A stretch of DNA of 64,000 nt from a virus. The notes beneath the pieces are model-generated. The model saw only the letters and a list, made by a program, of their open reading frames with translations, searched no databases and was not told the origin of the DNA. Position 1 is the stretch's first letter; every line of letters begins with the position of its first letter. Location of the stretch: IMG/VR virus record IMGVR_UViG_3300037470_000856, positions 77,030 through 141,029 of that record; one strand, given 5' to 3'. Below, in pieces: positions 12,201-51,352 of this stretch. A program made the translations under genes and the position numbers.

Positions 12201-12264
12201 CCCAGTAGTCGATCGACCACGAGGGCTGTGTCACGTCCGCGCGGGCGTACTTGAGGAAGGCCAT
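9217..12264 (-). CDS. prohead (capsid maturation) protease with intein
   Basis: NNNHDAW...YRTFVGAHNFVEH...GRIIDA...SMGC...FIEASWVDVPA motifs of Bxz1-type maturation proteases; position upstream of scaffold and MCP. Confidence 0.8.
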   Translation of the reverse strand: MAFLKYARADVTQPSWSIDYWGNFVQRARGRVRTASSSPNLVAQASEILQDQFSPEKYLLTHATIVASVDTSEVSNVKLGNVSEMGRRVNRRWANYHILPKCDIYINNNHDAWDRPVLLKSYRTFVGAHNFVEHVQIEDQSKGRIIDAAARDIGDSVYVDILIATSRRHASLIRDIESGRMGTMSMGCSVTETICTKCGNVAADETEMCFPPGTRVLLADGRYVPIEEIVEGDAVVTHTGLTGAVTETMRRPYEGHLISLDVDGVPVGLRSTPNHPYWTLRPAQICACGCGAPLRRTVEHERGSVKAFRRRFLPGHNTRLQNPNPYAVNVVEMGDYKRLFDVDLEFVAARDLRAGDYLAFPIPQETENTDDATVNRARLIGYFLAEGSFIKRDSERVGVSFTFGHHEHDTLAAEVEKLLNEEFGRDERRVSSENWRTLVARDSVTPVHRRSTSRSVSSDVMCPGCRAPSEYAYNVRFKKGADDCYQCKVCNRQWVGSADRSVRVHRNRNSGSTEDSGSVDVRFMDAQVAEFFFRYCGEYSHEKRLDPSILRWSPEVQKHVLFGWLGGDATQADVGIVGSTTSLNLLNQMHILAARCGLYSYKKVTFGGRSATLDQVVNGDGSVTVRDHRGWLPSFGLVVSDPQGFGDEVRFSDRETARVTMSAVTDGFKRVGNWLIYRVRGVSCEPYSGPVHNFGVEGDHSYVVEGLAVHNCEHVKYGKGQYEYDQLGNKFRVAELCGHETLDPTGGVTFIEASWVDVPAFQGAVMRNILQPDSINLDTRSQMQRLLSEPPRQWTASEDEMAKAARDMTVSFEGSKTAAELAEERRQARLAHARLAQLTAPPGDDAGDDAGGGMPGMPGDPGGGEDADPMKDLEDAVEKYVLDKIKKKLRDKMQGDEGDKDEPSPAELETSTNENINHQAAMAKLAAGTEALLCIARSDVELIDGIARLKQTHDFQVSRDLYRTALRVGSTDGHPSLDKYLARCAEVLGRKPQTGEAKTLVRLGRILSLRKQTRF
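10132..11640 (-). mobile_element. intein with LAGLIDADG homing endonuclease in the protease (503 aa)
   Basis: starts CFPPGTRVLLADG, block B TPNHP, LIGYFLAEG, ends VHN followed by Cys. Confidence 0.9.
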
Positions 12265-14514: not shown

Positions 14515-14529
14515 ATAAGGCGAAAAACG
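14515..14529 (-). promoter_or_regulatory. putative late promoter motif CGTT-TTTCGCC-TTAT
   Basis: near-identical to the 36668..36682 copy; lies in a ~345-bp intergenic gap. Confidence 0.6.
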
Positions 14530-14752: not shown

Positions 14753-17700
14753 TCAGGCCACGTCGAGCACGACGACGGGGCGAAGCGGGTCGTCCGGGTG
14801 GAACGACCGGACGTGCGCGAGCCAATCGCCAGCCATACGTCCGTGGCGACCGCGCTCAAGCCACACCTGGGCAACGCGCTCAACCGCGAAGCGGGTCGGG
14901 CCGCGCTCCTCGAAGTCGCCGAACTCGGCGGAGAATTCCTCGCCGGGAGCCTCGCCCCCGCGCGCCGGCTTCTTCTCGTCCTCGTCGCCACCCTTGTCGG
15001 CGTAGCGCTCGGCCTCGTCGCGCTTCTTGAAACTCTTGGGGACGCCGTCCTCGTTCTTGGCGCGCCAGTTCCCCTGCTCGGTCCCCCAGACGTCGCCGGG
15101 GCCGTGCTCCTCGTCGTCCTTGACCTCCTCAGAGTCCGCACTCTCGGGAGTTTCACGATCGGAGGTCTCTGCCTTCTCATGCTCCTCCCTGGAGCGTGGC
15201 TCCTTGGCCTTCTCGTCGGGGTGCGGCAGCGTCTCCTGCTCGAGCACCTCACGCTCGCCGGTCTGCACGAAGTGGTTGAGCACCGCGGAGGCAGGCGAAA
15301 TCACCACCTTGTCGAACTTGTCGCGGATCGTGTTGAGGATGGCCTTCGCCTTCTCGCGCAGTCCGGTTCCCTTCTTGGGATCGAACGTGCCCTCGACCAT
15401 CTCGAGGTCCTCAGCCGAGGGCTGCTCGCCGTTCCTCTGCGCCTCCGCGATCCGCTCCTGCGCCTCGAGCACCTTCTCCATGCGGGGCTTCATCCGGGAG
15501 GTCGCCTCGCCGAGCACCTCGGCGCGCGCCTCGGGGTCGTCGGCGTCGGCGATGCCGGCCGCCTGCATGGTGTCGCGCACGGCCCGGTCTCCCCACTGGT
15601 CGTTGAGGATGTCTTGGACCAGGAAGTCCTTCATCATCGCTCGCAGGACGTCGGGCGTGCCGTCGTTCTTCATGAGGTCGACGAGGTCCGCGTAGCCATG
15701 CTCCTCGTCGCCGCCCGTGGTGAGATCGCCGAGCTGCTCAAAATTCATGTCGTCGAGCCCCTCCTGCATCTTGCGGCGCGCCTGCTCGGCGAAGTAGTCC
15801 TCGGTCGTCCTGAACAGCTCGGACCCCTTCCCGTCCACGACCATCTGCTTGACCAGCGCGGCCATGCCCTTGCTCGGCTGCGGACGACCTGGGAGCGACT
15901 CGCCAGTCACGGCGACCTGCGCGATGTTCATGCCGGTCAAAATCGCGTTGAGCTCCTGCGCCCGGTTGGTCTCGGGATCGAGACCCTTGAGGGCCCGCGC
16001 GACCTGATCGGCCGCGCGCCTGCGCAGGGACGACGGGAGGCGCTCGAACTGCTTGAACGCCGCCTGCGCCCGCTCCGAGTACTTCTCGGAGTCCATCTCG
16101 GTGACGCCGACCGGCGTCCCTCCGATGTTCATCGGGTTGCCCACGATGCGCTCGGCGTAGCTGAGTTGTGCGAGGCGCTCCGCGAGCTCTTTCGGGTCGG
16201 TGAGGCCGTGCAGATCTCCGAACTTGGCGGCTCTCGACGCGACGTCGACGGCCTCCTCGGAGCTTGGGTCCATCTGCTTGAGATTCTTGAGCGTGTCCTG
16301 GAAATCGATCGAGAAGCTCTCGACCTGCGCCTCGTCGAGGTCGTTGAGGGCGCCGCCGATCTGCGTGGCGAGGTCGGGGGGAAGCCGCGTTTCCTTGCCG
16401 AGCATCTCCTCCATGTTGGTCTGCGCGCGCTCGACGGCGCGCTCGACCTTCTTGGCCCGCTCCTGGCGCAGCTTCTCCTCGCGCTTCTCCTTGGCGAAGC
16501 CCGGGTCCTTGCGCTCGCGCCTGAGCTCGTCGACGCGCGCCTTGGCGTCCGCGTGCTCCTCCTTCTTGTCGTCGAGCTCGTCCTGCTTGCGCCCCATCTC
16601 GCGCTGCATCTTCTGCATCGAGTCGAGTAGCTGCTGCCTGCCGGGGCCCTCTCCCATGTGAGGCAGGTACTCGTCGCGCTGCTGATTGATCTTGGACTTG
16701 AGGTCCTTGATCTCGTCGGTGAGGTCCCCCATCTGGGCCTCGATGTCGCGCATCTCGTCGCGCGCCTGCTCGAGCTCGACGTGCACGTCCTCGGTGGTGC
16801 GCTCCTTGTCCTCCTCGGTCTTCTTCCCCTTGTCGGTGCCCTCCTCCTCGGGCTGCTGCTGGCCCCGCCACTTCTCGCGGATCTTGGTCTGCTCGTCAGG
16901 GGGCAGCGAGGTGAAGCCGACGTCGTTCCCGGTCTCGGGGTGCTTGAACTTCTGGTTCTTGACCCACTCCTCGAAACTCAGGCCGCTCTTGGGCTGCACC
17001 GGGGCCTCGGCCATGACGTGGCGCAGGGCCACGCGACGCGCGACCTTGTTCCACTTCATGGACAGGTCGGGGTCTCCCTTGTCGCCGCCGCCCATGCCGT
17101 CGAGGTCAGGGTCTTCCTCGTCCAGAGTCCGGTTGTCGCGGAGGTCGTAGCGCGGAGGCTTCTTCTTGGGCTCCGTGCGGAGCATCTTCTCGACGGCCTC
17201 ATCCTCCTTCTCCGCGGGCGACTTCGTGGCCGTCTTCGCCTGCGGAGTCCTGATCATCGCGTCCTGAAAGCGGAAGTCCTTGTTGCGCCCCTTGTTGGGC
17301 CCCTTGTTGGGCACGAAGCCCATGCCGCGGTACCACTTCTCGAGGTGCTTCTTCGACGAGCCGAACTCGGAGGTCGGGGTGAACGTCACGGTCACGCCGT
17401 TGCTGTCAACCCAGTCGAGCGTCTCCTCCATTGCTCTCGAGGCGCTGCCCGACCCGCGCCTGTCCTCGTTCACCCGGATCAGGTCCACGGACATGTGGCG
17501 GTGCTGCGGACGGTAGGCGGCGTGGGAATCTGTGAGGCTGTGCCTCTCGATCATAGACTTGCGCAGAGCGTCCCACTCCTCGCGGCTCGGGGGCTCGCGC
17601 TCGGGCGCGTCCTCGTCGTCGACGCCCATGACCCTGGCCTCCCACTCTTCGCGGGACAGAGCGGGACCTCCCTCTCGGCGCTTGCGCTGCACGTAGGCGT

Positions 17701-20700
17701 CGTAGGTCGGAGCGGCGAGCCTCGCGTTCGGGCGCGGCCGGTACTGCTCCTCGGGCGAATTGTCGACGTGCCGGCACATGTCGCAGCGTGTCCCGCACCG
17801 CCAGTACTCCTCGGAGTCAAAGGGGTAGCCGTCGTCGAGACCGTAGTGGTCGAGCAGCACGTTGAGGCAGCGCTCGCAGCTCTTCGCGGCGACCATGATG
17901 GCGTCGCCGACGTCCCACTGTCCGCTGCGCACCATGGTGTTGACGAGGTCGGTCGGGTACGACGACTCGCCCGCGCCTACGTCGGTGCTCGTGCCATCCT
18001 CGTTCAGACGTAGGATGCTGTGGTGCAAGACGTGGGGGAACTGGCTGTGCATGTACTCGGCGCCCTCGGGGGGCTGCCACGTCTCGTACTCGCCGAGGTC
18101 GCCGCCGCCGAGGCGGTTGCCATGGGCGTCCTCGTACCAGAGGATCGTGAAAATCTGGGGGTCGAACTCAAGCCCCTCGACGTGAGGGCGCGGACGCTCG
18201 TGCTCTCGGGCGATCCGGTAGACGGCCGGCGCGTTGCGGAGCCACCACCGACGGTCTCGGGACACGAGGACCGGGGCAACCCCGGCGTGCGCCAAAATGA
18301 GGCGCTCGGTGTCGGTGCCGAGGAGCGCCGCCGTGCGCATGATTTTGGGGTCCGACGCCTTCCTCGTGTGGCTCTCGTTGACGGTGCCGTCCTTCATGTA
18401 GCCGTCCTCCAAACCCGGCACGAGGTACTGGCTGCGAAGGGTCGAAGGATCGTGCCCCACGGCCTCCGCCGTCGCTTCGAGGGCCTTCTTGAACTCGTCC
18501 TTGAGTTTCTTCTCGCGCTCCTTTCTGTCCTCGGGGAGTTTGCCCTTACGGACCTTGCGGAGTTGCGCCTTCATCTCGCGGTTGGCGTGGAACCCACGGA
18601 GGTCCTTCGCGGTGATGTCAAGCGGCTCGAGGTACTCGTTGACCTCCTGCGCCGAGACGCTCAGGACGCAGTCGTTGGGCTTCTTGCCCTTGCACGCCTC
18701 CTTGAGCGCCGAGACAACTCGCGGGTTACTGATCTTCTTCTTCTGCTCGACGCCCGACTTGCCGACGTAGGAGACCGTGACGGAGCCCCGGCCGAGGGTG
18801 ATGTGCTTGACGCGCCAGGTTGTGACGCCGAAATGGCCCTCCTTGGCGCTGTCGTCGTTCCCGACGCGCTCAAACGTCTCGTCCATGAGGCCCACGGCCA
18901 ACGCGAGATCGCGGGTCTTTTCGTCCTTCGACTTCACGTCCTTGCGGACCTTGGTCTGGAGTTTCTTCATCTGGCGTCGCAGCTTCTCGACGCGCTCCGC
19001 CTTCTTGCGGTTGCGGTCGGCCACCTGACGGTCGCTGTACTCGTAGACCGTCATCTCGTCCCCGTCCTTGGTCTTGACCTTCTTCTTAGACTTGTAGCGG
19101 ACGGCGATGGCGGAGCACGTCGCCATCTTGCCCAGGTCAGGCTCGCGGGCCTCCATCTTGTCGCGGTAGCGGAACACGCGGACGGGGATCTTAGGCTCGC
19201 GATCATCGGGCAGCAGGTTGCGACGCCGCACCACCTCCGCGTGCTCAGGGACGAGGTACAGGAACAGCGCGGGGTGCGTGGTGTCGATGGTGAGCTGGCT
19301 CGTCGTCCGCATCTTGTCGGTGACGCGAACCGGGTTGAAGGGGCTGTCGGCGTCGTGAATCGCCTTGACGAGGGCCACCGCGGCGGCCTCGGGGCGTCGC
19401 ACGTCCTGAAGGCGCTTCTGGGCCTCCCACCGGCGCACGATCGAGCTGACGTAGTCGTCGCCGTGCGTGTAGCCGGCGTCCGGGTAATTCACACCGTGGT
19501 TCGTCCGCGTGTTGACGCGGTCCGAATCGAGCTCAGTGACATGCGCAGGGTGATTCTTGCTGCACTCGATGCTGAACAGCTTGTTGCCGTCCGCCACAAA
19601 CGTGTGTCCCCGGATGCCGCCGTTGTCGGTGCGCAGGGATCCCACGGCGTCGTCGATGTTGTCAAACGCGAGCGCGCGGTAGATCTTGGGGCCGTCCTTG
19701 GAGGTCAAGGGCCTCTTGCCCTTGCCCTTCCCCGGCGACTTTTTCTTGCCCTCGGCCTCGTCGCGTACGACCATGAGGGTGGTGTTGACGGCCGCGATGC
19801 CGTGCTCGTTGACCCCCTCGAGGTAGCCGGTGACCGTGTCGAGGACGACGGCCATCTCGGTGCCGTCCTTCTCGATGTGCACGATCTCGAGCTTCGCGTC
19901 GTAGGCTCGGTCGCGGTTCTTGAGCAGGCACAGGCTGTCGCCGAAACGGCGCCCCGCGATGATGCACGCCTCCCTCAGCATGGCGGTCTTCTTGACGGAC
20001 CTTCCCGAGTCGAGCACGACGATCTCGGACGTGTACGGCTTGCCTCGCACCTCGGTCACCGTGACGACCCCGTCGTAGCCGTCCTTCTGGAGCGCCTTGG
20101 TCAGCGCCTGCCCGCGCTTGCGGTACCGTCGCTCGAGCTGCGCCTTCCACGAGTTGTCGTCGTAAATCAGCCCGTCGGGGTCGGTGTTGACGGCGAGCAC
20201 GAGAGGGTTGTCGAGTTTCACGGTGCCCGTGACGTATCCGGGCAGCGGGTCGTCGTCGTCGTCGTCGGTAGTTTTGTGCGTGACGTAGAACCCCGCGGGC
20301 TCGATCTTCTGCTGGTACGGGTCCGACCCCTTCGGGGCCCGCGGTGCCTTCTCGGTGTTGCGCAGGAACTCAAACTCGACCGGCGTGCCCGTCTCGAACT
20401 TGCGACCGCGCTCCTCGACGGTGCGGAGGGGCATCTCGTCGGACCTCCGCGAACTACTCCAGCGCTCGTAGACCTTCCGCTGTTCGGCGTCCGGCAGCGA
20501 GTCGAAGACGACGTCGTTGCCCGTGTCGGGGTTGCGGAAACGCTGCCCCTTCACCAAGTCGAGAAACTCCCTGGAGTACGCAGCCTGCTTGCGCCGGTCG
20601 GCTCGCCAGATCTTGTAGAGACCGATGACGCGGTTCTTCTTGCGGCCCTTGGGGATCGGCTCGATCTCCACGGACGGCACCCCGCGATCGTCGTCGAACA

Positions 20701-20812
20701 GGCGCACGACCCGGCCGCGCTTGTTCTTGCCGAACAGCACCTCGTCGCCGACCTTGAAGTCGTCCTGCGCTGCCAGGTGGCGCATGGCCACGCGTGCGAC
20801 GAGAGCACTCAC
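14753..20812 (-). CDS. giant polyvalent protein (~2019 aa): SH3-like, ART-like, Ntn-hydrolase, topoisomerase IB, Zn domain, GNAT, coiled coil
   Basis: GTG 20812 overlaps the upstream TGA; GFYVT..LDNPL..GYDGV..EIVVL (ART-PolyVal-like); CIIAG..KNRDR (Ntn); RVGN/GKSG/KDLR/GH/SQYL (TopoIB catalytic set); RRGSG..LEKWYRGMGF (GNAT). Confidence 0.8.
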   Translation of the reverse strand: MSALVARVAMRHLAAQDDFKVGDEVLFGKNKRGRVVRLFDDDRGVPSVEIEPIPKGRKKNRVIGLYKIWRADRRKQAAYSREFLDLVKGQRFRNPDTGNDVVFDSLPDAEQRKVYERWSSSRRSDEMPLRTVEERGRKFETGTPVEFEFLRNTEKAPRAPKGSDPYQQKIEPAGFYVTHKTTDDDDDDPLPGYVTGTVKLDNPLVLAVNTDPDGLIYDDNSWKAQLERRYRKRGQALTKALQKDGYDGVVTVTEVRGKPYTSEIVVLDSGRSVKKTAMLREACIIAGRRFGDSLCLLKNRDRAYDAKLEIVHIEKDGTEMAVVLDTVTGYLEGVNEHGIAAVNTTLMVVRDEAEGKKKSPGKGKGKRPLTSKDGPKIYRALAFDNIDDAVGSLRTDNGGIRGHTFVADGNKLFSIECSKNHPAHVTELDSDRVNTRTNHGVNYPDAGYTHGDDYVSSIVRRWEAQKRLQDVRRPEAAAVALVKAIHDADSPFNPVRVTDKMRTTSQLTIDTTHPALFLYLVPEHAEVVRRRNLLPDDREPKIPVRVFRYRDKMEAREPDLGKMATCSAIAVRYKSKKKVKTKDGDEMTVYEYSDRQVADRNRKKAERVEKLRRQMKKLQTKVRKDVKSKDEKTRDLALAVGLMDETFERVGNDDSAKEGHFGVTTWRVKHITLGRGSVTVSYVGKSGVEQKKKISNPRVVSALKEACKGKKPNDCVLSVSAQEVNEYLEPLDITAKDLRGFHANREMKAQLRKVRKGKLPEDRKEREKKLKDEFKKALEATAEAVGHDPSTLRSQYLVPGLEDGYMKDGTVNESHTRKASDPKIMRTAALLGTDTERLILAHAGVAPVLVSRDRRWWLRNAPAVYRIAREHERPRPHVEGLEFDPQIFTILWYEDAHGNRLGGGDLGEYETWQPPEGAEYMHSQFPHVLHHSILRLNEDGTSTDVGAGESSYPTDLVNTMVRSGQWDVGDAIMVAAKSCERCLNVLLDHYGLDDGYPFDSEEYWRCGTRCDMCRHVDNSPEEQYRPRPNARLAAPTYDAYVQRKRREGGPALSREEWEARVMGVDDEDAPEREPPSREEWDALRKSMIERHSLTDSHAAYRPQHRHMSVDLIRVNEDRRGSGSASRAMEETLDWVDSNGVTVTFTPTSEFGSSKKHLEKWYRGMGFVPNKGPNKGRNKDFRFQDAMIRTPQAKTATKSPAEKEDEAVEKMLRTEPKKKPPRYDLRDNRTLDEEDPDLDGMGGGDKGDPDLSMKWNKVARRVALRHVMAEAPVQPKSGLSFEEWVKNQKFKHPETGNDVGFTSLPPDEQTKIREKWRGQQQPEEEGTDKGKKTEEDKERTTEDVHVELEQARDEMRDIEAQMGDLTDEIKDLKSKINQQRDEYLPHMGEGPGRQQLLDSMQKMQREMGRKQDELDDKKEEHADAKARVDELRRERKDPGFAKEKREEKLRQERAKKVERAVERAQTNMEEMLGKETRLPPDLATQIGGALNDLDEAQVESFSIDFQDTLKNLKQMDPSSEEAVDVASRAAKFGDLHGLTDPKELAERLAQLSYAERIVGNPMNIGGTPVGVTEMDSEKYSERAQAAFKQFERLPSSLRRRAADQVARALKGLDPETNRAQELNAILTGMNIAQVAVTGESLPGRPQPSKGMAALVKQMVVDGKGSELFRTTEDYFAEQARRKMQEGLDDMNFEQLGDLTTGGDEEHGYADLVDLMKNDGTPDVLRAMMKDFLVQDILNDQWGDRAVRDTMQAAGIADADDPEARAEVLGEATSRMKPRMEKVLEAQERIAEAQRNGEQPSAEDLEMVEGTFDPKKGTGLREKAKAILNTIRDKFDKVVISPASAVLNHFVQTGEREVLEQETLPHPDEKAKEPRSREEHEKAETSDRETPESADSEEVKDDEEHGPGDVWGTEQGNWRAKNEDGVPKSFKKRDEAERYADKGGDEDEKKPARGGEAPGEEFSAEFGDFEERGPTRFAVERVAQVWLERGRHGRMAGDWLAHVRSFHPDDPLRPVVVLDVA

Positions 20813-23800
20813 CGGCGCAGCTCCTCGATCACCCGGTCGGTCAAGTGTTGTCCCTTGACCGCGAGCTTGGGGTCCTGGAGGATGATGTGACGAGCCGTCG
20901 GCACGATGTGACGACGGTCGGGCCCGGGCAGCTTGAGGACGTCGATGATGCGGGGGTTGTCCACGGGCGGCTTGATGAGTTTCTCGACGAGCGCGACAGC
21001 GTCCTTCTCGGGCATCGAGACGGTCAGGGCTCGCAGGCGGTCGCGTCCCGACGGATCGAGGAAGGAGATCGGCGTGGAGGCGGGCACGCCCAGCTCGAGC
21101 AGGTCGAGCAAGAACTGCACCTTTCGGTTGCGCCGGAGCTGGTTCGCCATGTACGCGGCGAAGGGCTTCTGCTCCTGGATCATCTCGGACACCACGTCGA
21201 GCAGCCCGAGCATCTTCATCTCCTTGAGGGAGCGCCGGGCGGTCGGCTGGTTGAGGACGTCGTTGACGAGGATGGACGCGACGGCCTCCCATGGCATGCG
21301 CTTGAGCTTGGGCGCGTTCTTGCGGATCGACCGGATCACGTCGGGAGGGATCTTGAACCCGTACTTGCCCGTGAACTTGATAGCCCGGAGCATGCGCGTG
21401 GGGTCGTCGGAAAACACCCGGTCGGGCTCCTGCGGGCACTTGATGACGCGGCGCTTGAGGTCGGCTCGGCCGCACCCCGTCAGGTCGATGATCTCCGCCT
21501 TGTCGGGCCCGTGCGCCAGGTCGAGCATGCGCCACAGCAGCGTGTTGTGGACTACCACCCCGTTTGCAACGAAGGCCGGCTCGATCCCGTCACCCATCGA
21601 GATGTCGAATACGTCTTGGTCTCCGGCGTCCTCAACCGAGACGACCTCAACGTACTGGTATCCCAGTTCAAACAACCGTTGGAGTTTGACATGTTCACTT
21701 GCGCTGATAGCCATGAGGCTCGCCAGGAACTCCCCGAAATCACCGCGAACGTAAGCGTCGTGCAGAAGTCGTTTCGGACGGCGGAGCGCCTCCAAAATAC
21801 CGCTTTCGGCGACCTCACCACCCTCGTCCGTTCGGTACATCGAAGGTCCTTGGTTGTTTCCGACCCGTGTCCTGCGTCCCTTCAAAAACCCTTGGAGGTG
21901 TTCTTTCGGGACCCCATACCGGTTCCGGCTCTTGCAGGTCTGCTGCGCGTAGTCGAACCCCTTGGTCACCATCCACGGCTGGATCTTTTCCCACAGGAGG
22001 GCCGAGTCCACGGCATTGAGGTAGACGAACCTGTCCTTCACCTTGCTCAGGACGCCGTGAGCACCGAGGAGCGCCTGCAACTGCTGTCGGACATGAGGCG
22101 ACGCCGAGCAGAAGGTGATACGACCCGTGTCAAGTCGAATGGAGCCGTCACCCTCGAGGTAGGCGGCCAAGAAGGCCCACTGACTCCGCTCGTCGGCTTG
22201 GAGGATGGACCAAGGCACCACCTTGTGGTGAGAAGGAGACTTTCCATCCCGCGCACCTCCGCAGTACAGGCCCAGTTCATCCAGCCACCCCACAACTGCC
22301 TTGCTGTCGGCGTAGATGTCGTAGCCGTCTGAGTTCGCGACGAACTCGACGCCCCGCAAGACCCTCACCGAGCCCTTCTCGATCACCTTGTTCTGCAAAG
22401 GTTGGAACCCGAACACAGTGTTGAAACACTCGACGTAGCGGGAAATGAGAGCCCGATCCGAGTTGCTGAATGACACCCGCTTGTGTGTGTTCGATCCCTC
22501 AGCCACCACGCACCCGATCACGAACGCCAGCTCGGGCGTCATCGCTTCGGGTTTGTGCGCCGCCTTGAGAGTGCCGCGCTTCGGCTGTGCGGGGTCTTTC
22601 AACTCCAAAGTCAGCGGCTCCTGCCTCGTCACCTGCCGCACGGGAACGCAGAGAAGGTCGCCCTCTTCAAGTTGATCGGCCTGCACCCAAACGTGGTTGT
22701 GCCCTCGGAGGACCAAGACTGGATGGTGGTGCGTGCAGGAGAAGGAGTGGCCCCACTCGGTCGTCACCCGAAGCGTAGGGGCACAGCCGCTGTACTGCCA
22801 CCCCACAGCCACCGCGGGACCGTCTTTCCCCGCCACGGTCAAATTGAGATCCTGATGGTCTCCCTTCTCTCGAGAGGCGATCTGGTCGATGCGAAGGATG
22901 CCCCTCTCCGTAGGAATGAGGGTGTCTCCGGCCATGCAGTTGAAGGTGAACTCCCGGCGCAGGACGTCCTCCTCGATCGTCGCGGGGGCGACCGAGTGGG
23001 GCTTGTACCCCTTGCCGCCGCTGCCCCCGTAGCTCTCCTTGCGGGCGTTGGCGATCTCGAGCACCTCGCCGTCGAGATCCTCGCCGCCCACGATCCACGG
23101 CCCCTTCACGGTCAGGATGGCGACGCCGTACTGGTTCGTCGTTACGTTGGTCGGCGCCGGGATGTTCCGGGCGATCTGCTTGGCGAGCCAGTCGGAGTCG
23201 CGGCCGGCCTTGGTCATGTCGATGACGATGTCGATGTCCTTGATCGGCTGGTTGATCAGAAAGTTGCGCACAGCCCCGCCCACGACGTAGGTGTCCCGGC
23301 CCACCCCGAGGCGACGGGTGAGATCGGACAGCCACTTCATCAGGGCCACGTTTTTGCGATGGACGGAGCCTTCCACGGTCAAGGATGCTACCCGACGCCG
23401 GATCCACGTCGAGGCGACCTTCGCCGCGGAGGGCCCCATCTTGAGCTTGTGGACCTCGGGGAGCCCCCAAACCTCCATCTCGTCGAAGGCCCATGATCCC
23501 TCGGGCACGGGGCCGTCCCACTCGGCGTCCATGCCGGGCATGTAGGCGAGGGTGACGTGGGGCTTGTACTCGGGGAAGCTGTCCCCGACCTCAATGCCCG
23601 CGTCGTGGAGCTCCTGCTTGACGCGGTGCTTGAAGCCCGACAGATCCTTGTCGAACTCGACGGCGACGTGCGGGACGCGGCGATCCTTGTCGTGGTGATC
23701 GAAGTACTCGAGTCCGTTGAGCCGCGCCTCGCACTTGGGCCACCACTTGCGGCAGCACTCGCGGAGCACCTCGACGAGCTTCTCCTGCTGCTTCTCGCCC

Positions 23801-24915
23801 TTGAAGTCGCCGATGTAGAGGAACGTGACGTGGCTCGGAGAGTCGTCGTTCTCGCCCAGGCTCGGAAACTTCTTCGCCAGGTCCTTGGGCAGCGGGATGA
23901 ACATGCCGACGGACTCGCCGTCCCCGGTCTTGCTTCCCGTGGCCTTGGCTGTCTTGCCCTTGGGGTACTCGCCGTACTTCTCGCCCACGACGCCGTCGGG
24001 CACCCTGCGCTCGCGCACGATGTCCTTCGGCATCTCGGACTTCTCGTTCTTCCAGGCCTCGAAATGCTTCTCGCAGAACCAGGCGCGCCCGCGACCGTCT
24101 GCCCAGATGCCCTCGCGCTCGGGCGGCTTCTCGCATCCGGCGTGCATGCACTTCGACATGCTGTGACGGCTGGCGGCGTATCTCCAGAGCTGCGCCACCC
24201 GGATCGCGGTTTTCCGGCTGCCTCCGCGCCACTCCGCGAACTCCTTCTGCACCTGGGCGCGGAAGTGCGGACTCGTTTTGAGCAGCGTGGAGGCAGCTAC
24301 CTCGGGGTAGCGCTTCCGCGTCTGCGGATTGGTGTTCAGGACCTTCTTCTTGCCACCGTCGTAGCGTTCCGCGAGGAACTGCTCCCACTCGGCGCTGGTG
24401 GGCTTGCCAGGGTCCTTGGGAGGCTCCTTCTTGGGAGGCTCCTTCTTGGGCTCGGGCTTTTTCTTCGGCTGCTCCTCGGAGGCCGGCCCCACACGCTCTC
24501 CGTGGAGCGCGTTCTTGCCTCGGCCCAACTGGCTCGACGGGCGGTCCACGAGGGCGAACAGGCGTCCTCGATCCACAAATCTCAGACCGTGCTTCGGGGC
24601 CACGTCCGAGAATTCCATGAGGGGGCCCGAGAACAGGGAGGAGCCGTCGGGCTTCTTGATGTGCACCTCGGTGTTCGTCACCTTGTCGGCCCACGCCTTG
24701 GCCTCGTCCTCCGTCTTGAACCCTTGCAAGACGGCGCCGCCCCTCTGCTGGTGCGCGATCGCCTTGTGCCGGTCCACCACGCGGACGGGGCCCGAGGGCC
24801 ACTGGTTCGGGTTCACGTCGGCGACGACGGCGTAGTTGGCCTTCGCCTTCGCCACCCGCACGCGCAGCCAAGAGTTTGCGGCTTTCGTGAAGTTCTGAAT
24901 TGCGGAACGCGGCAC
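20809..24915 (-). CDS. multidomain protein: Zn finger + 2H phosphoesterase + CCA-adding/poly(A) polymerase-type nucleotidyltransferase with intein
   Basis: HVTF and HVTL 2H motifs; VVGGAVRN..KDIDI..EDVLRREFTFN..FSDDPTRMLRAIKF class II NTase motifs. Confidence 0.85.
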   Translation of the reverse strand: MPRSAIQNFTKAANSWLRVRVAKAKANYAVVADVNPNQWPSGPVRVVDRHKAIAHQQRGGAVLQGFKTEDEAKAWADKVTNTEVHIKKPDGSSLFSGPLMEFSDVAPKHGLRFVDRGRLFALVDRPSSQLGRGKNALHGERVGPASEEQPKKKPEPKKEPPKKEPPKDPGKPTSAEWEQFLAERYDGGKKKVLNTNPQTRKRYPEVAASTLLKTSPHFRAQVQKEFAEWRGGSRKTAIRVAQLWRYAASRHSMSKCMHAGCEKPPEREGIWADGRGRAWFCEKHFEAWKNEKSEMPKDIVRERRVPDGVVGEKYGEYPKGKTAKATGSKTGDGESVGMFIPLPKDLAKKFPSLGENDDSPSHVTFLYIGDFKGEKQQEKLVEVLRECCRKWWPKCEARLNGLEYFDHHDKDRRVPHVAVEFDKDLSGFKHRVKQELHDAGIEVGDSFPEYKPHVTLAYMPGMDAEWDGPVPEGSWAFDEMEVWGLPEVHKLKMGPSAAKVASTWIRRRVASLTVEGSVHRKNVALMKWLSDLTRRLGVGRDTYVVGGAVRNFLINQPIKDIDIVIDMTKAGRDSDWLAKQIARNIPAPTNVTTNQYGVAILTVKGPWIVGGEDLDGEVLEIANARKESYGGSGGKGYKPHSVAPATIEEDVLRREFTFNCMAGDTLIPTERGILRIDQIASREKGDHQDLNLTVAGKDGPAVAVGWQYSGCAPTLRVTTEWGHSFSCTHHHPVLVLRGHNHVWVQADQLEEGDLLCVPVRQVTRQEPLTLELKDPAQPKRGTLKAAHKPEAMTPELAFVIGCVVAEGSNTHKRVSFSNSDRALISRYVECFNTVFGFQPLQNKVIEKGSVRVLRGVEFVANSDGYDIYADSKAVVGWLDELGLYCGGARDGKSPSHHKVVPWSILQADERSQWAFLAAYLEGDGSIRLDTGRITFCSASPHVRQQLQALLGAHGVLSKVKDRFVYLNAVDSALLWEKIQPWMVTKGFDYAQQTCKSRNRYGVPKEHLQGFLKGRRTRVGNNQGPSMYRTDEGGEVAESGILEALRRPKRLLHDAYVRGDFGEFLASLMAISASEHVKLQRLFELGYQYVEVVSVEDAGDQDVFDISMGDGIEPAFVANGVVVHNTLLWRMLDLAHGPDKAEIIDLTGCGRADLKRRVIKCPQEPDRVFSDDPTRMLRAIKFTGKYGFKIPPDVIRSIRKNAPKLKRMPWEAVASILVNDVLNQPTARRSLKEMKMLGLLDVVSEMIQEQKPFAAYMANQLRRNRKVQFLLDLLELGVPASTPISFLDPSGRDRLRALTVSMPEKDAVALVEKLIKPPVDNPRIIDVLKLPGPDRRHIVPTARHIILQDPKLAVKGQHLTDRVIEELRR
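21544..22938 (-). mobile_element. intein with LAGLIDADG endonuclease inside the CCA-adding enzyme (465 aa)
   Basis: starts CMAGDTLIPT, THHHP, VIGCVVAEG and FLAAYLEGDG, ends VVHN followed by Thr. Confidence 0.9.
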
Positions 24916-24943
24916 GCGGAAGGTCTCCGCTAGACGGGACGCG

Positions 24944-24958
24944 ATAGACCGAAAACCG
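24944..24958 (-). promoter_or_regulatory. putative late promoter motif CGGT-TTTCGGT-CTAT
   Basis: 28 nt upstream of the 24915 start; matches the consensus. Confidence 0.6.
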
Positions 24959-24961: not shown

Positions 24962-25498
24962 CTAAAACCCGCTTGGCCGTGATCTTCGCCGGGCCTGTCG
25001 GGCGGCTTCCTCAGCGGCCGCGGCCTCCTGCTCGAGCATCTCGGCCTCGCTCTCCGCGAGCTCGCGGGCGTGCTCCACCTGATCCCTTGCGTGCCGTGCC
25101 TGCTTCCGGGCCGTCTCGGCCCGACCCTCGGCGATCTCGGCCTTGGCTTCGCCGAACGACTGCACCCGCATCTTGCGGCCTCCCGTCATTGGAGAATGCA
25201 CATGGTCGGGAGGTACCGGAACGAAGGGCCCCGTCAGGTTCCTCGGATCGGCCGGCACCGTGATTCCCCCCATGTCGGGAATCGGAGGGCCTTCGTGGTA
25301 GGCCCCGCGCTCGGGGTATTCCTCGGCCACGCGATGACCTTCTCGGGCCTGCTCCATCTGGCGCTGGATGACGCCCCTGGTCGGCGCGAGCACCTCGACG
25401 ATGTGCTCCTCGGGATCCCCGTCTCCGGGCATCATGGAGGTGCGGTTCTCGATGAGTGCGTGGAGGGTCTCAATCTCCTCGTCCAAAAGGTCGGTCAC
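24962..25498 (-). CDS. hypothetical protein
   Basis: 178 aa, start overlaps the portal stop. Confidence 0.6.
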   Translation of the reverse strand: MTDLLDEEIETLHALIENRTSMMPGDGDPEEHIVEVLAPTRGVIQRQMEQAREGHRVAEEYPERGAYHEGPPIPDMGGITVPADPRNLTGPFVPVPPDHVHSPMTGGRKMRVQSFGEAKAEIAEGRAETARKQARHARDQVEHARELAESEAEMLEQEAAAAEEAARQARRRSRPSGF

Positions 25499-27477
25499 TC
25501 TTCGCTCTTCTTCCTGGTCCCGATCAGACGCTCGACCACCGCGTCGGCGATCTTGGCGACCATGTCGTCGGAGAGCTCAAGGGCCTTGGCGGAGGCGGTC
25601 CGGAGCGATGCGAAACGTCCCATGGGCCCCTCCTCCGGCTTCGTGTAGTCGAGCCCGAGCCGCTCGGCGATCTTCTCGGCGATGTTGGAGTTCTCGGCGA
25701 GCTGGTCTCCAGTGCGACCGTAGACGGACCGAAGCACCTCGTTGAACTGCGCGTCGTTGAAGGTGGCGAAGTCCCGCTCGAGGCGCTCCTTGACCACCAC
25801 GGGGTCGATGTTGAGCAGGTCGAGGATGGTCTCGACGTCCAGGGACCCCTTCTGGTAGAGTTGCATGAGCGCATCGAAGGTGTCCTGGTTGTCCCGGAGC
25901 GCGAGCCTCGTGAAACTCAGCTTCGGGTAGATGACGACCATTTCGCCGTCCGCGTCCTTCTCCACGAATCCCATGCGGCGGCACATGGGCTTGAAGAAGT
26001 ACTGCTCGACGAGACGCTGCACGTTCTCGCGCAGCAGCATGTAGCGCGTGTTGATGACCTCGAGGTTGATCCGGTCACCGCTGTAGGAGGACTCGCCGTT
26101 GAGCAGCGTCTCGGTCACGCCGAGGCCCGCGTAGAGCTGCCGGCTGATCAGGTCGTACTCGCCGGTGAGCTCGAGCAGGCGCCCGTTCGAGTTCATCTCC
26201 TCCCAGGTGACCGGGAAGTTCGTGACGATCGAGTAATCCGGGTCCTGAAGCGCAAGGTCAATCTGGTCGCGCAGGTTCTCCGTGTCAGACTCGCTCATGT
26301 CCTCCGCGTACACGAGCCGCACGGGCGTCATGTGGCGCGAGGCGATGGATGTCTGTGCCTGGCGGAGTTTGTCGAAGTAGACGAGGACGCGGAGGCAGCG
26401 CTGGAGGATGCTGTGGCCGCGAGGCTCGTACTGCGACTTCTTGTTCGCCATGTAGTGGACGAACGAACCCCCGTCGGGGTCCGTCGAAAGCGGAATGTTG
26501 TCGCCTCGACGCAGGGCTTCGACGACGACGGGGTCCATCGACTCGGCGACGCGCTGCGCGTTCCTGTCGCCCTGCTCCGCCATCTCGAGAACGTGTTTCG
26601 TCTTCGCGTCGGGGATCAACTCGATGATGACTTGGTCCGTGAACGGGAAAGTCTGGATGTGCACCTGCTCGGGAGGCAGGATGCGGATGTTCGTGAGACC
26701 CCGGTAGTTCTGCTTGAGCCAGTCGACCGCGAGGTCGTCGGCCTCGTCTCGCTCGACCCACTCCTCCCTCAGCGTGCTGTCGCGCTCGACGCGACGCACG
26801 ATCTTCTCCCGGATCTCCCGAGGCATCTCCGGGTTTCCATCCTCGCAGAAGATGAACACCTCGCCGATGAGAAAGTAGTCGTGGACGATCTCGAGCAGCC
26901 GCTGCAGCAGCCCGATGTTCTCCACCCACTTCTCGCAGAACCTCAGGGCCCTGTCCGCGAGGTCCCGGCTCTTGGCCTTCGGACGCGCGAGCCGGACCTT
27001 CGACAGGGGAAGCTCCGTGTGCAGGTCGATGGCCTGCCCGACGAACGGCTCGTTGTTATAGAAGAACCGGTAGTAGTTCCACTGCTCGTTGAGCGACTGT
27101 GGGAGCTCGAGGAAGTCGGGGGACAACTCGGGCGAGTAGAAGTTGCCCGCGGACGCCTGCGAGACCGCGCCGGGTCCCGCGTTGCCCCCGAAACCTCCGC
27201 CCCCTCCGAAACCTCCGCCCCCTCCGACCACGCCGCCACCGAAGCCAGTACCCCCGAACGAACCGGAGCCCGGGCCGCAGGAGGCAGCCACCTTGGCGCG
27301 GAAGCTCGTGGTCGCCTTCGACCTCATGGAGCCGACAACGACGCGCGATGGCTTGCCCACGCGGACGTGGGTCCGGTGGTTGGGCACCTCTGCGACGACG
27401 CGCTCGTCCTCGTTCCGCCGCGTAGACGCGACGGTCGCGGGGCCTGCGATCGCCTTACCTGATCCTTCCGCTGGCAT
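25495..27477 (-). CDS. portal protein
   Basis: YRFFYNNEPFVGQAIDLHTELPLSK, YFLIGEVF, RGHSILQRCLR, AGLGVTETLLNGE; downstream of terminase; Gly-rich N-terminal extension. Confidence 0.8.
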   Translation of the reverse strand: MPAEGSGKAIAGPATVASTRRNEDERVVAEVPNHRTHVRVGKPSRVVVGSMRSKATTSFRAKVAASCGPGSGSFGGTGFGGGVVGGGGGFGGGGGFGGNAGPGAVSQASAGNFYSPELSPDFLELPQSLNEQWNYYRFFYNNEPFVGQAIDLHTELPLSKVRLARPKAKSRDLADRALRFCEKWVENIGLLQRLLEIVHDYFLIGEVFIFCEDGNPEMPREIREKIVRRVERDSTLREEWVERDEADDLAVDWLKQNYRGLTNIRILPPEQVHIQTFPFTDQVIIELIPDAKTKHVLEMAEQGDRNAQRVAESMDPVVVEALRRGDNIPLSTDPDGGSFVHYMANKKSQYEPRGHSILQRCLRVLVYFDKLRQAQTSIASRHMTPVRLVYAEDMSESDTENLRDQIDLALQDPDYSIVTNFPVTWEEMNSNGRLLELTGEYDLISRQLYAGLGVTETLLNGESSYSGDRINLEVINTRYMLLRENVQRLVEQYFFKPMCRRMGFVEKDADGEMVVIYPKLSFTRLALRDNQDTFDALMQLYQKGSLDVETILDLLNIDPVVVKERLERDFATFNDAQFNEVLRSVYGRTGDQLAENSNIAEKIAERLGLDYTKPEEGPMGRFASLRTASAKALELSDDMVAKIADAVVERLIGTRKKSEE

Positions 27478-28247: not shown

Positions 28248-31200
28248 CTATCGCCCCCGCCTGCGAGGAACCTGCCGCTTCGGGTCGGAGCCGCCGAGCA
28301 GCCTCTTCCTGTGGTTGATGCGTCGGACCTTGGCCGAGACGCCGGGCTGGTTCGGATCGGCGTTCGTCTGGGAGCCCGCGATGTGCTTCAGCTTCCCAAG
28401 ATGCATACTCGCGAGATAGAGCGAGCGCGCGAGCGCGTCCGCCATATCGTCGTGCTTCCCGTCGGACTGCGGCGCCTGGACGTCGATGATGTACTTGGCC
28501 TTGTAGGTCGCTTGGAGGGAGCGGATCTCCTCAAGGTACTCAAGGTGCTCGGGAGGGGTCTCCTCGCGCCGGAGGTATGCCTGCTTCTCCTGGTCGGTGA
28601 TGTCGTAGAGGGAGAGGCGCGACGTATCACCGACGCGGTCCCACAACAGCGACTTGAAGTTCTGCCAGATCTGGCTCTTCTCGGTCTGCGAGAAGAGTTT
28701 GCCCTCGAGCATGGTCAGGCCCTTCTTAGCGAGCGCCTGCTCAAGGGGGATGGCGCCCCACTGGTCGAAGAGGCCCTTGTAGAACCGGAAGCGGCGGGAG
28801 AGCAGGTAGATCCAGTTGGCGACGTCCTCGAACTCAAGCCGGTCCTTGTCGATGAACTCGCCCTCGCCGGCCTTCATCTTGCCGATGAAGTCGAGGATGA
28901 TGCGGCCCTGCGGGTCGATGTGCGTGATGGCGATCGACGAGGCGTCGTGGACGAGGCCGAGGTCGAACCCGACGAAGTACGCCTGCCGAGGCTCCCCGCG
29001 GTGACGTGGGCGAAGGTTCTTGTCGATGCAGTCCCACAGATCCTGGTCCGAGTCGAGCCAGCCGAGGGTGCGGTCGGTGAACTCAGCCCCGAACTCAACC
29101 TGGAACTTGCGCGGGTCGAAGGCGTACTCCTCCTTGAACGCGGCCGCGGACATGGTCGGGTTCACCTCCCACGTCGGCGCCTGCACGGCGAGCATGTTGC
29201 GGGTAGAGTCCCCCCCGTTCATCGCCTGCTTGAACTTGTCGTAGAAAAGACCCTGCTTGCCGAGGGGGCTCGAGATCATGATGATCCGGCCCTCGGACTC
29301 GGTGTCATCGCCGTCGGCCGGGTTGCCGAACGCGTCCTTCGGAGTGAACGTCTTGTTCGACGGCGACAGGGCCGTGTAGACCTCCTCGGCCGAGCTGCCG
29401 CCCTGCTCGAGGAAGTGCGCGACCTCGTCGAGGATGATGACGATGTTGCCCGGACCGCGGAGGCTCTTGGCGTTGCAGGCCGCGAACGAGACGCGCACGG
29501 AGGCGCGGGCCCGGGGGTTCTCGACGTAGGAACCGAACTCCTCGATGTCGTACGGAGTCTGGAAACGCGCGTAGGAGAGGGTGTTGTTCGCCGTGTACCG
29601 CTTGAAGAACGAGCACTTGGCGAAGTGGTGGCTCACCTCCTCGTAAAGAAGACCCGCCTGGTCCTTGCCCGTCGCCACCGAGAGGAGGCGGATCGGGTTG
29701 GAGGGGGCGAGCCCGTAATACCTCTGCGGGTTGCCTTTGTTGATCAGCTTGTACGTCTCGTACGCGGAGATGCACGCGGAGATCGTCGTGTTGTGATTGG
29801 TCAGACCGTTGGCCACGAAGCTCTCGCCCTCGGGCACGTTGAGATCGTAGACCTCGTCATGGTCCTCCACCACGAACTCGACGGGATCGTAGAAGTAATC
29901 GGCGGAGAAAATCTCGTCGAAATGCTCGATGAAGTCACGAGACGCTCCTTGGCCCAGGGCCACCGGTCGCGCCTCCCTCCAACGGGGGTAGGTCATCTCG
30001 TCGGGCGCAGAGAGCTTGATCGTGTTGCCGAGTTTGTCGCGCAGCTTGGACCGTTGCCAGCCATTGCCCATGCTTTTGTGCTCCGTGGGAACGGAGTCCA
30101 GCAGTCTCCGGCACCACGAGCGCTGGTGAGGAACACCCTCCGTGTCGCCCCTCTCTCGGGACACCGACCGAATCTTTGCGACAAGAGGGGCCATCTTCTT
30201 GCGCGTCATGAACCCCACGCGCTCAGCAAACATCGTGCGCGACCGCAACCCCCGAATCGTGAGGACGTGGTAGTCGCGTCGATGCTTCTTGTTCCACTTG
30301 GCCTTGCGACGGCTCACAATGCCCAAGTTAAGGAGCAACACCTGAACCTCGCGAGCAAGACGCTCGCTGGCCGTCGAGAACGAGACGGTGTTTCCGACTG
30401 ACTCGACGTCTCCGTCCGTCTCGAACAGACCCCGCAGGAACGCCTGCACGACAGGTACCGGAGACTTCATGATCGACCACGGGACGTGCTTGCTGTACCG
30501 GTCGCAGTCCCAGTCCCACCCCAGCTCGTGCAGGAATTCGCGAGCGGCCACGCTGTGAAAGCGCAACGCACCCGTGTTCTCCGTCCTCTTGTCCATCGTG
30601 CGTGTGGATGGCCCGAGCAGCTCCTCGAAGAGACCCTCAGCCAGTTCCCACATCTCGTCGTGCTCGACGGTCATGCAGATGCCGTTCTGGGGCTTCCAGT
30701 GACCGTCTCCCACCAGCATCCCGAGAAGGAGGCCCCACTTCTCGTCGACGTGAGCTGGGAATTGAACGTTCTTGCGTCCCGGATGAAGCAGACGCTCGAC
30801 AACATCGGTCGTCGAGACCTGTTCGGACGCCCACAGATCCGTCCCACGGTGAACCGCGATCTGATCTCTCTCACGGATCTCGTCCAGCCTGCGCCAGTCG
30901 ATGACCCCTTCCTCCGTCATAACCCTGACGCGGTGGTTGGGGGTGCCCGCGATCTCGTACCCGCAGTGCGTCTTGACTCGACGAATCTCTCGGTGGCCTC
31001 CTCGATAGAAGTAGGCCGACTTGCTGCGCTTCCGTGCCCCCTCCTGTGCGACGGTGATCTCGAGAGGGAAGTGCTCCTCGCCAGGGTACTGAACCCACGA
31101 CAAGAAATCGTCGAAGCTGTCGATCCTGACCACTCCTTGGTCGGTGAAAACGAGAGTGTCGCCGACAACACATTTGCCCGAGCGGCGTCCGATGGGGAGG

Positions 31201-51348: not shown

Positions 51349-51352
51349 ATAG

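Follow-up and report, generated by a model that had tools for sequence, protein, structure and literature searches.

A 2H phosphoesterase domain and a predicted, intein-interrupted class II tRNA nucleotidyltransferase in a polyvalent-type protein of a very large phage

Introduction

The polyvalent-protein concept, in which 2H domains are included, was set out by Iyer, Burroughs, Anand, de Souza and Aravind in 2017 (PMC5512222). The CCA-type class II nucleotidyltransferase has no place in that paper, in which 'CCA' occurs 0 times. In the ThpR/LigT group of 2H enzymes the extended motifs are HxTxxF and HxTxxR, with the arginine of the second essential in ThpR (PMC4201822), and the LigT-type enzymes leave a 2'-phosphate, the removal of which is still needed (PMC4201822; PMC9503650). 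In the CCA-adding enzyme of E. coli it is the HD domain that takes off 2',3'-cyclic phosphates when tRNA is repaired (PMC6961547, citing Yakunin 2004). Jumbo phages that have many tRNAs often encode a CCA-adding enzyme (PMC7824862), and anti-phage toxins that hit the CCA ends of tRNA are known, among them CapRel (PMC9712102) and MenT (PMC7450476).

The gene described here, P0001, encodes a 1368-aa protein that shares with the polyvalent proteins its unrelated enzymatic domains in one very large chain, its portal/terminase neighbourhood, the shuffled order of its modules among relatives, and a 2H domain of the kind listed by those authors. With at least two unrelated effector domains in the polypeptide and a portal/terminase context, it matches the polyvalent proteins of those authors, and one relative, P0006, carries ART-PolyVal; it differs from theirs in that the unit is split over two overlapping genes and has both an intein and short conserved tag motifs at the borders of its modules. 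P0001 resembles the E. coli CCA-adding and repair enzyme in combining a class II nucleotidyltransferase with a phosphoesterase of a kind able to handle 2',3'-cyclic phosphate ends (PMC6961547, citing Yakunin 2004). The E. coli phosphoesterase is a C-terminal HD domain, however, while P0001 has an N-terminal one of the 2H fold, which is unrelated. The nucleotidyltransferase is of the same superfamily as the free-standing CCA enzymes of jumbo phages (phrog_2244, 3.9e-29; PMC7824862), which are also found in tRNA-rich phages, but here it is one part of a head-module polyprotein and is split by an intein.

Results

The window analysed is a stretch of 64,000 nucleotides (positions 77,030 to 141,029 of IMG/VR record IMGVR_UViG_3300037470_000856), to which all coordinates below refer; (-) marks its minus strand. 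The source is a very large uncultured phage with a genome of ~450 kb by CheckV estimate, of which the 141 kb record is ~31%. In the window TerL comes first, then the portal gene (25495..27477 (-); phrog_16240, 8e-31), then an ORF of 178 aa and then P0001, which puts the portal gene two genes upstream. The ORF at 20809..24915 (-), encoding 1368 aa and followed by a stop codon, is a real gene. Its start codon is GTG, with the ribosome-binding site GGAG read from the sequence at 24923..24926 (-), 7 nt 5' of the GTG, and the homologue alignment has the N-terminus MP..NFTK in common between P0001 and its homologues.

The initial annotation had placed a putative promoter upstream of the gene, and there is indeed a promoter-like motif, GTTTTCGGTCTAT (KTTTTCNNNYTAT), at 24944..24956 (-), with 28 nt separating it from the start codon. 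The window has four copies of the KTTTTCNNNYTAT motif, every one on the minus strand, against a chance expectation of 0.02. The next copy downstream (14515..14527) is directly past a gene of 2019 aa (14753..20812 (-)), the GTG start of which overlaps the stop codon of P0001 (GTGA) and the product of which has a topoisomerase IB core at residues 599-791. As the next promoter-like copy comes only after the 2019-aa gene, the two genes would make up one unit; in relatives the partner forms a single chain with the 2H and nucleotidyltransferase modules.

Seven tRNAs are encoded in the window. Two of them, tRNA-Pro(GGG) at 51818..51893 (-) and tRNA-Leu(CAG) at 51352..51436 (-), have no encoded CCA, as had been pointed out before, with CTA after the discriminator instead; the other five do encode CCA. 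A search of the 141-kb record, ~31% of the genome, for KptA, HD, PNK, RtcB, RNA ligase and a further phosphatase found none of these.

The N-terminal modules of the protein (residues 1-235; 24211..24915 (-)) include a first tag, KAANSWL, at residues 13-19 and a K/P-rich module at residues 148-235, of which two further copies are present in a 1908-aa protein encoded upstream of the window. These are followed at 23911..24210 (-) by a second tag, IRVAQLW at residue 239, and a Cys/His module (CxxxxC...CxxH, approximately residues 255-290), which is immediately before the 2H domain in many relatives. By residue spacing only, this module is a putative zinc ribbon; the structure model of a homologue has predicted beta strands there, with pLDDT about 80-89, and an Atlas search with the module gave no match. 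The 2H domain, assigned from profile, motifs and model, spans residues 336-512 (23380..23910 (-)), and the third tag, KVASTWI at residues 499-505, is within a helix that runs into the nucleotidyltransferase. Three RVA tags had been reported in this protein. The bare RVA tripeptide is common in this GC-rich genome, at 65 in ~47.8 k residues, and it is the longer motif [RK][VI][AS]xx[WYF][LMIV] that is enriched at module borders, with 97 copies in the homologue set where shuffles gave 6.1 +/- 2.4, concentrated in these homologues at the end of the 2H domain and right before the nucleotidyltransferase.

Motifs A, B, C and D of the nucleotidyltransferase are all present. The N-extein (residues 513-659; 22939..23379 (-)) has motif A (GGAVRN...DID), which is GGAVRNFLINQPIKDID at residue 546, and the carboxylate strand LEIANAR at residue 619, both invariant in the family; a loop region of 23 residues, counted in favour of the tRNA-repair reading, separates this strand from motif B. 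The C-extein (residues 1125-1368; 20812..21543 (-)) carries motif C, DLTGCGRADL, and motif D, DDPTRMLRAIKF at residues 1170-1181, in which D, P, R and F are invariant and which fits the pattern (E/D)DxxR. The Pfam PolyA_pol head is matched at 9.8e-13 and the PHROG tRNA nucleotidyltransferase family at the value given above. Pfam found no HD domain in P0001, and the 244 residues past motif B are a normal neck, body and tail, so that profiles, motifs and Pfam search agree with the original description of a class II nucleotidyltransferase without an HD domain.

What that description overlooked is a LAGLIDADG intein of 465 aa (residues 660-1124; 21544..22938 (-)), recognised from Pfam and from its splice-site residues, which interrupts motif B: RREFTFN is followed by the intein and then by T, where the intein-free family consensus is RREFTFNTLLW. 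The hallmarks are Cys1 (C660), block B THHH at 728, the terminal HN at 1123-1124 and T1125 at +1, and the match to Pfam Intein_splicing is at 47.3 bits (cut-off 35.8). Most homologues are intein-free exactly at this N|T (or N|A) junction, with an intein at the same site in P0007, P0011, P0050, P0059 and P0090 and in 4 of 80 related loci. The intein must be spliced out before the nucleotidyltransferase can function.

The model of an intein-free homologue, P0008, which is 68% identical to P0001 over the 2H-nucleotidyltransferase segment searched, matches CCA-adding enzymes at Z 21-23.4 over its residues 288-676, comprising head, neck, body and tail. A-adding enzymes follow at Z 20.4-21.1, E. coli poly(A) polymerase at 18 and CC-adding enzymes at 16.5-17.4. 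The NCBIfam equivalog cut-offs are missed both for NF009814 (76.7 bits against 290) and for pcnB TIGR01942 (75.4 against 305), which carries little weight because the intein splits the match. CCA-adding enzymes are not cleanly separable by sequence and fold from A-adding enzymes or poly(A) polymerase. The domain is described here as a predicted class II tRNA nucleotidyltransferase, complete and of the CCA/A-adding type, with presumed tRNA substrates.

A 2H domain with two HxT motifs had been located at ~23440-23910, and this is right. The motifs are HVT at H362 (23824..23832) and at H453 (23551..23559), their histidine and threonine are invariant in 23 homologues, and Pfam 2_5_RNA_ligase2 (PF13563) is matched over residues 358-460 with 32.1 bits against a cut-off of 27, as is PF10469 with 28.9 against 24.4. 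The AlphaFold model of the domain has pLDDT 92.7, and its comparison with solved structures of 2H enzymes gives Z 13-15. With both motifs, profile scores over the cut-off and the fold, the domain is a member of the 2H superfamily.

The comparison of this model with Acb1 and LigT, which had been proposed as a check, places it nearer to LigT and the CPDases. Among 68 chains at Z>=8 the best match is 5h7e (Z 15.2, rmsd 3.6 over 157 residues), others being YjcG (14.8), TT0787 (14.4) and E. coli LigT (13.2), and close after this group come Usb1 (13.3) and the viral 2',5'-phosphodiesterases (11.4-12.2). The weakest matches are Acb1 and the poxvirus or phage cGAMP phosphodiesterases (8.6-9.1). Acb1 (7t26) resembles P0001 in its 2H fold, its two HxT motifs and its being phage-encoded, but it is small and free-standing, and the match is weak, with Z 9.1 and rmsd 3.9 over 125 residues where the LigT-like enzymes reach 13-15; such likeness of fold shows no function. 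The Pfam Acb1 family (PF23474), with its cut-off at 27 bits, is matched at 15.6 bits and over residues 437-461 only. The alternative of an Acb1-like nuclease, which had also been put forward, is not supported by these scores, and the fold is LigT/CPDase-like in the model rather than Acb1-like.

Even so, the domain is no typical ThpR. It shares with ThpR/LigT and the D. radiodurans CPDase (4qak, 5ldm, 5h7e), its best matches, the two HxT motifs and the aromatic residue after the first, HVTFLY retaining that of HxTxxF. The second motif is HVTLAY in place of HxTxxR, so that the arginine essential in ThpR is absent, Tyr or Phe replacing it across the family; identity is 14-20%, and the TIGR02258 equivalog is not reached (33.2 bits against a cut-off of 65.7).

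There are 854 representatives of the P0001 family at E<=1e-3, all of them metagenomic, on huge-phage contigs of up to 536 kb. Among 80 related loci there is a portal gene upstream on the same strand in 39, a topoisomerase IB downstream in 37, and both in 33. The giant polypeptides of the relatives, up to 3381 aa, have 2H, nucleotidyltransferase and topoisomerase IB in shuffled order, topoisomerase IB being the most constant fusion partner. The 2H domain precedes the nucleotidyltransferase in 26 cases, with a gap of <=11 residues in 17 of these, and follows it in 13; there are 86 with the nucleotidyltransferase only and 25 with the 2H domain only. In P0075 the 2H domain is combined with topoisomerase IB and the nucleotidyltransferase is absent. 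Judged from these relatives, the 2H domain is an optional, mobile module and not an obligate partner of the nucleotidyltransferase, and its absence, or its variable distance and side, in many relatives means that tight mechanistic coupling is not required.

Fusions of the nucleotidyltransferase in the relatives involve phosphoesterases of four unrelated families (2H, HD, HAD_SAK_1 and PAP2), as well as RNA ligase and inorganic pyrophosphatase. Examples are NTase-RNA ligase-2H (P0196), NTase-DUF5661-HAD_SAK_1-2H (P0187), HD-NTase (P0253), NTase-InPase-2H (P0192) and NTase-PAP2 (L067). The Pfam name HAD_SAK_1 presumably comes from the 'Swiss Army Knife' RNA-repair proteins. Like these, the relatives join nucleotidyltransferase, HAD_SAK_1, 2H and RNA ligase in one chain, while P0001 has only the 2H and nucleotidyltransferase parts of that set. 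In each of five near-complete relatives (402-536 kb) there is a single nucleotidyltransferase of this kind. Two relatives have it as a free-standing gene, ~400 aa long, and there no portal gene was detected within 10 kb.

Discussion

It is tentatively proposed that P0001 is a module that heals and rebuilds the 3' ends of tRNA, within a cargo polyprotein for which packaging in the head is probable. Together with its partner gene it would make up a 'polyvalent' cargo unit of a huge phage, and this unit would be transcribed from the phage-specific promoter-like motif a short way past the portal gene. The 2H module would open or trim RNA 3' ends that have been damaged, for example those with 2',3'-cyclic phosphates, and the nucleotidyltransferase would rebuild the CCA end, by which host and phage tRNAs would stay chargeable; it may also complete the phage tRNAs that have no encoded CCA. 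Such healing and re-addition of CCA was part of the initial annotation, and the phosphoesterase and ligase fusions of the relatives, which point to RNA repair, lend it independent support at the level of gene architecture. Against it, the 2H module is optional, and since the products of LigT-type enzymes keep a 2'-phosphate the proposed healing step would be incomplete, whereas the HD domain of E. coli has phosphatase activity as well.

Alternatively, the two domains may be independent effectors that share a polypeptide only as cargo, with the 2H domain either acting as a Usb1-like RNase or breaking down the nucleotides of host immune signalling (cyclic oligonucleotides, or nucleotides that are 2'-5' linked or 2',3'-cyclic), and the nucleotidyltransferase acting separately on tRNA. 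This is a possibility, if on the unlikely side. The varying order and presence of the modules would be expected of it, as would the polyproteins that, like P0075, combine 2H with topoisomerase IB and nothing of the nucleotidyltransferase; Usb1 and the viral 2',5'-phosphodiesterases are near the LigT group in structure, the ThpR arginine is absent, and RNase or signal-degrading roles were proposed for polyvalent 2H domains by Iyer et al. in 2017. It is countered by the place of Acb1 and the cGAMP phosphodiesterases as the weakest matches, with the Pfam Acb1 score below the cut-off, by the short gap between 2H and nucleotidyltransferase in most cases of that order, and by the repeated adjacency of the relatives' nucleotidyltransferase to end-healing phosphoesterases of other folds and to RNA ligase.

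That these fusions are accidents of a gene-dense head region, and that P0001 is an ordinary, unpackaged tRNA-maturation enzyme, late only through its gene position, which adds CCA to phage tRNAs, is improbable. It would suit the frequency of CCA-adding enzymes in tRNA-rich jumbo phages, the two tRNAs without CCA, and the single copy in near-complete relatives, free-standing in two. A CCA enzyme is normally supplied by the host, however, and dozens of divergent contigs repeat the adjacency to the portal gene and the in-frame fusions with topoisomerase IB and other enzymes. The module borders are also marked by shared tag motifs. More improbable still is an RNA-tailing enzyme, for example a poly(A) polymerase, delivered with topoisomerase IB as an early nucleic-acid toolkit, loosely as in poxvirus cores. 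The near-equal scores of the pcnB and CCA models and the constancy of topoisomerase IB as a partner would agree with this, but E. coli poly(A) polymerase is at Z 18 where CCA- and A-adding enzymes are at 21-23, the fusion partners are RNA-repair enzymes, and polyadenylation destabilises bacterial RNA.

The cargo unit would probably be taken up into the capsid and enter the cell together with the DNA, because its genes are placed among those of the head and, in relatives, it shares a chain with topoisomerase IB and further effector enzymes; the activity would then be present from the first minute of infection. The earlier suggestion of a virion protein, or else a cargo role, fits the conserved place behind the portal gene (39 of 80 related loci) and the giant fusions with effector enzymes, and it is from these that we infer packaging and injection. 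A broader proposal, which is speculative and rather unlikely, is that huge phages load their capsids with a tRNA 3'-end repair kit, consisting of an end-cleaner (2H, HD, HAD or PAP2) and a CCA-rebuilder on a topoisomerase IB cargo polyprotein, which would be released with the DNA and would pre-empt the abortive-infection toxins that disable CCA, whether by CapRel-type pyrophosphorylation, by MenT-type extension or by acceptor-end nucleases. Such a kit, if real, would be the first virion-delivered translation-repair activity.

Organization of P0001

The open reading frame at 20809..24915 on the minus strand of the window, in which the GC content is ~64%, starts with GTG, with GGAG 7 nt upstream, and encodes the 1368 residues of P0001. 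The N-terminus (P..NFTK) is common to its homologues. The window spans bases 77030–141029 of a 141-kb IMG/VR virus record, which CheckV puts at 31% complete; this would mean a genome of roughly 450 kb. Leader modules (residues 1–235) and a Cys/His module (residues 236–335), for which an Atlas search returned nothing usable, are followed by a 2H phosphoesterase domain at residues 336–512, with HVT at 362 and 453, which scores 32.1 bits in Pfam (PF13563, cut-off 27). The N-terminal part of a class II nucleotidyltransferase (NTase; residues 513–659) then ends in motif B (RREFTFN), and its C-terminal part (residues 1125–1368), of which the first residue is Thr, carries motifs C and D, then the neck, body, and tail. 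The head domain is matched in Pfam (9.8e-13) and the PHROGs match is to phrog_2244, 'tRNA nucleotidyltransferase' (3.9e-29). There is no HD domain in P0001, nor space left for one. The initial annotation of a 2H domain and a class II NTase lacking HD is confirmed, with one important omission.

This omission is an intein that carries a LAGLIDADG endonuclease and was picked up, like the 2H domain and the NTase head, in the searches of Pfam, PHROGs, and NCBIfam. It occupies residues 660–1124 (Cys1, THHH, and terminal HN) and separates the two parts of the NTase. The NTase of P0001 cannot be active until the intein has spliced out. In most homologues RREFTFN-TLLW is uninterrupted, while an intein is present at exactly the same site in five representatives and four IMG/VR loci, which indicates that it is a mobile element within an active-site motif.

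Residues 148–230 of P0001, a K/P-rich stretch and a helical module, are also seen twice, at 45–46% identity, in a 1908-aa protein without a Pfam match that is encoded upstream of the window (G000:C1:69124-73128; L008).

Type of nucleotidyltransferase and 2H domain

All of the class II NTase motifs are conserved in the family. The structure compared was a model of P0008, a natural intein-free homologue (68% identical; pLDDT 88.5), which matched bacterial CCA-adding enzymes at Z 21–23.4, A-adding enzymes at Z 20.4–21.1, E. coli poly(A) polymerase at Z 18, and CC-adding enzymes at Z 16.5–17.4, a ranking that is only modest. Sequence searches and Foldseek do not separate these four classes, and the NTase is therefore referred to as being of the CCA/A-adding type.

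The model of the 2H domain, a confident one (pLDDT 92.7), is closest to the D. radiodurans CPDase (5h7e, Z 15.2), followed by YjcG (Z 14.8), TT0787 (Z 14.4), P. horikoshii 1vdx (Z 13.5), Usb1 (Z 13.3), and E. coli LigT/ThpR and AKAP18 (both Z 13.2). Viral 2',5'-phosphodiesterases (Z 11.4–12.2), Acb1 (Z 9.1), and the poxvirus and phage cGAMP phosphodiesterases (Z 8.6–8.9) are lower. For Pfam Acb1 the score is 15.6 bits, short of the 27-bit cut-off. The structural ranking and this score indicate a LigT-like rather than an Acb1-like domain, and the suggestion that P0001 might contain an Acb1-like nuclease is not borne out. ThpR requires HxTxxR (PMC4201822), whereas the second motif is HVTLAY throughout this family and TIGR02258 scores under its cut-off; judged on these sequence features, the 2H domain is not a strict ThpR.

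Distribution and genomic context

P0001 has 854 relatives in a full HMMER search that covered 1.84 billion representatives, 248 of these at E<=1e-30; those looked up are all metagenomic, on contigs of up to 520 kb. Against 50,697 phage records, megablast of the gene found no match and tblastn of P0001 found intein matches only (terminases and helicases), with no cultured relative there. Modules were mapped in the best 150 of the 854 relatives. The 2H domain precedes the NTase in 26 of these and follows it in 13, with the NTase only in 86 and the 2H domain only in 25. A topoisomerase IB (TopoIB) core is in the same polypeptide in 24 of the 150, including P0016 (3381 aa), P0018, and P0012.

In the window the TopoIB core is at residues 599–791 of the 2019-aa protein encoded by the next gene (Pfam, 1.6e-27). 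The GTG start of that gene overlaps the TGA stop of the P0001 gene (GTGA; 20806–20812), consistent with translational coupling at the junction that in relatives is fused into one frame. A promoter-like motif, KTTTTCNNNYTAT, is found 28 nt ahead of the P0001 start codon, one of four copies in the window, where 0.02 would be expected; all four are on the minus strand. The next copy falls after the downstream 2019-aa gene, which makes the two genes a single unit. A scan for sigma-70 promoters and terminators gave no signal above chance, and a 16-mer from the spacer upstream of the P0001 gene is not significantly repeated.

In the window, the terminase gene, which has an intein of its own, is followed by the portal gene, a 178-aa ORF, the P0001 gene, and the genes for the TopoIB protein and a protease-like protein, in that order. 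Neither Pfam nor PHROGs gives a match to the 178-aa ORF (24962..25498, minus strand). Among 80 IMG/VR loci with a P0001-type NTase, on contigs of up to 536 kb, a portal gene is upstream on the same strand in 39, often within 100–2000 nt, TopoIB is downstream in 37, and both are so placed in 33; the 2H domain is present in 28. Each of five near-complete relatives (402–536 kb) has exactly one P0001-type NTase, in giant frames in three and free-standing in two, so that the cargo copy is also the only CCA-type enzyme of the phage.

The unit fits phage polyvalent proteins as defined by Iyer et al. 2017 (PMC5512222), the domains of which include 2H. Nowhere in that paper, however, is a CCA enzyme mentioned. 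From gene position and architecture we infer that P0001 is packaged and delivered. The family is undescribed within the literature searched and is widespread in huge phages.

Possible function

The NTase has a variety of partners in the relatives. It is fused to an RNA ligase (PF09414, 123.8 bits) and 2H in P0196, to DUF5661, HAD_SAK_1, and 2H in P0187, to an HD domain in P0253, to an inorganic pyrophosphatase and 2H in P0192, and to PAP2 phosphatases in P0206 and at locus L067. Four unrelated phosphoesterase folds alternating beside one NTase, together with a ligase, are the signature of RNA-end healing and repair, a pattern paralleled by the CCA enzyme of E. coli with its HD domain (PMC6961547). 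The best reading, which we hold tentatively, is that the 2H domain and NTase would heal and rebuild tRNA 3' ends within a probable capsid cargo protein. The proposal that P0001 heals ends and re-adds CCA gains from these phosphoesterases and the ligase, but the 2H domain is optional and LigT-type enzymes leave a 2'-phosphate (PMC4201822; PMC9503650). None of KptA, HD, an AAA_33 kinase, a kinase-phosphatase, RtcB, or an RNA ligase was found in the 141-kb record, which is ~31% of the genome, so that their absence proves little.

That the 2H domain is both optional and mobile within polyproteins means that it and the NTase need not form a fixed pair. This favours the main rival explanation, that the 2H domain is an independent module degrading signals or acting as an RNase, although with the alternation of phosphoesterases and the ligase set against it this seems the less likely of the two readings.

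Some of the fusion partners are unexpected: P0206 also has Fic with its PAP2, the pyrophosphatase of P0192 is of the polyvalent type, P0006 has ART-PolyVal, and Fe/Mn superoxide dismutase domains are joined to the NTase in P0010 (precomputed Pfam).

To our knowledge, phage answers to tRNA damage have so far been early-expressed free enzymes (T4 Pnkp, Rnl1) or replacement tRNAs. Here a CCA-type enzyme is embedded in a head-module polyprotein, and dozens of huge-phage contigs conserve this arrangement, which suggests that the means of maintaining tRNA 3' ends can travel pre-loaded in the particle. The exchangeable 2H, HD, HAD_SAK_1, and PAP2 domains, with RNA ligase and pyrophosphatase, are a natural experiment that reveals the chemistries needed around the CCA end and hints at defence systems directed against it. 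This large family is open to direct study with recombinant protein.

Tags and tRNAs

Three 'RVA' tags had been noted in P0001. As bare tripeptides these are unremarkable in this genome, but they are part of a longer, conserved motif, [RK][VI][AS]xx[WYF][LMIV], found 97 times in the homologue set against 6.1 +/- 2.4 in shuffles (~16-fold enriched) and concentrated at module borders. The third tag is, in the homologue model, within the long helix linking 2H to the NTase head.

As had been reported, two of the seven tRNAs in the window do not encode CCA: Pro-GGG and Leu-CAG have CTA in its place, while the other five encode it. Between the annotated tRNAs there are tRNA-like stretches with a T-arm-like GGTTCGA (~52810–52880 and ~51700–51780, minus strand), uncalled by ARAGORN and possibly representing tRNAs that are degenerate, split, or unusual.

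Mobile elements

In a 230-kb related phage contig, shared with L006, a 292-aa ORF (L051:10675-11553) interrupts the NTase gene ~93 residues into the C-terminal part. The C-terminus of this ORF resembles a Vsr/EDxHD-type homing endonuclease, and the NTase resumes as a separate ORF (11492..11986). An Rfam search found no group I intron in this gene, which may be split or contain an unrecognised intron; loci L032 and L061 have similar gaps. With the motif B intein and this insertion, the NTase gene stands out as a mobile-element hotspot. Inteins and homing endonucleases are abundant in the phage genome. In the window, on the minus strand, there is an intein in the large terminase gene (28248..31535), Hint and LAGLIDADG matches are found in the 1015-aa protease-like protein (9217..12264), and an 838-aa protein (3356..5872) matches a LAGLIDADG endonuclease. 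In the relative L006, the portal gene (L006:5850-9299) also contains an intein.
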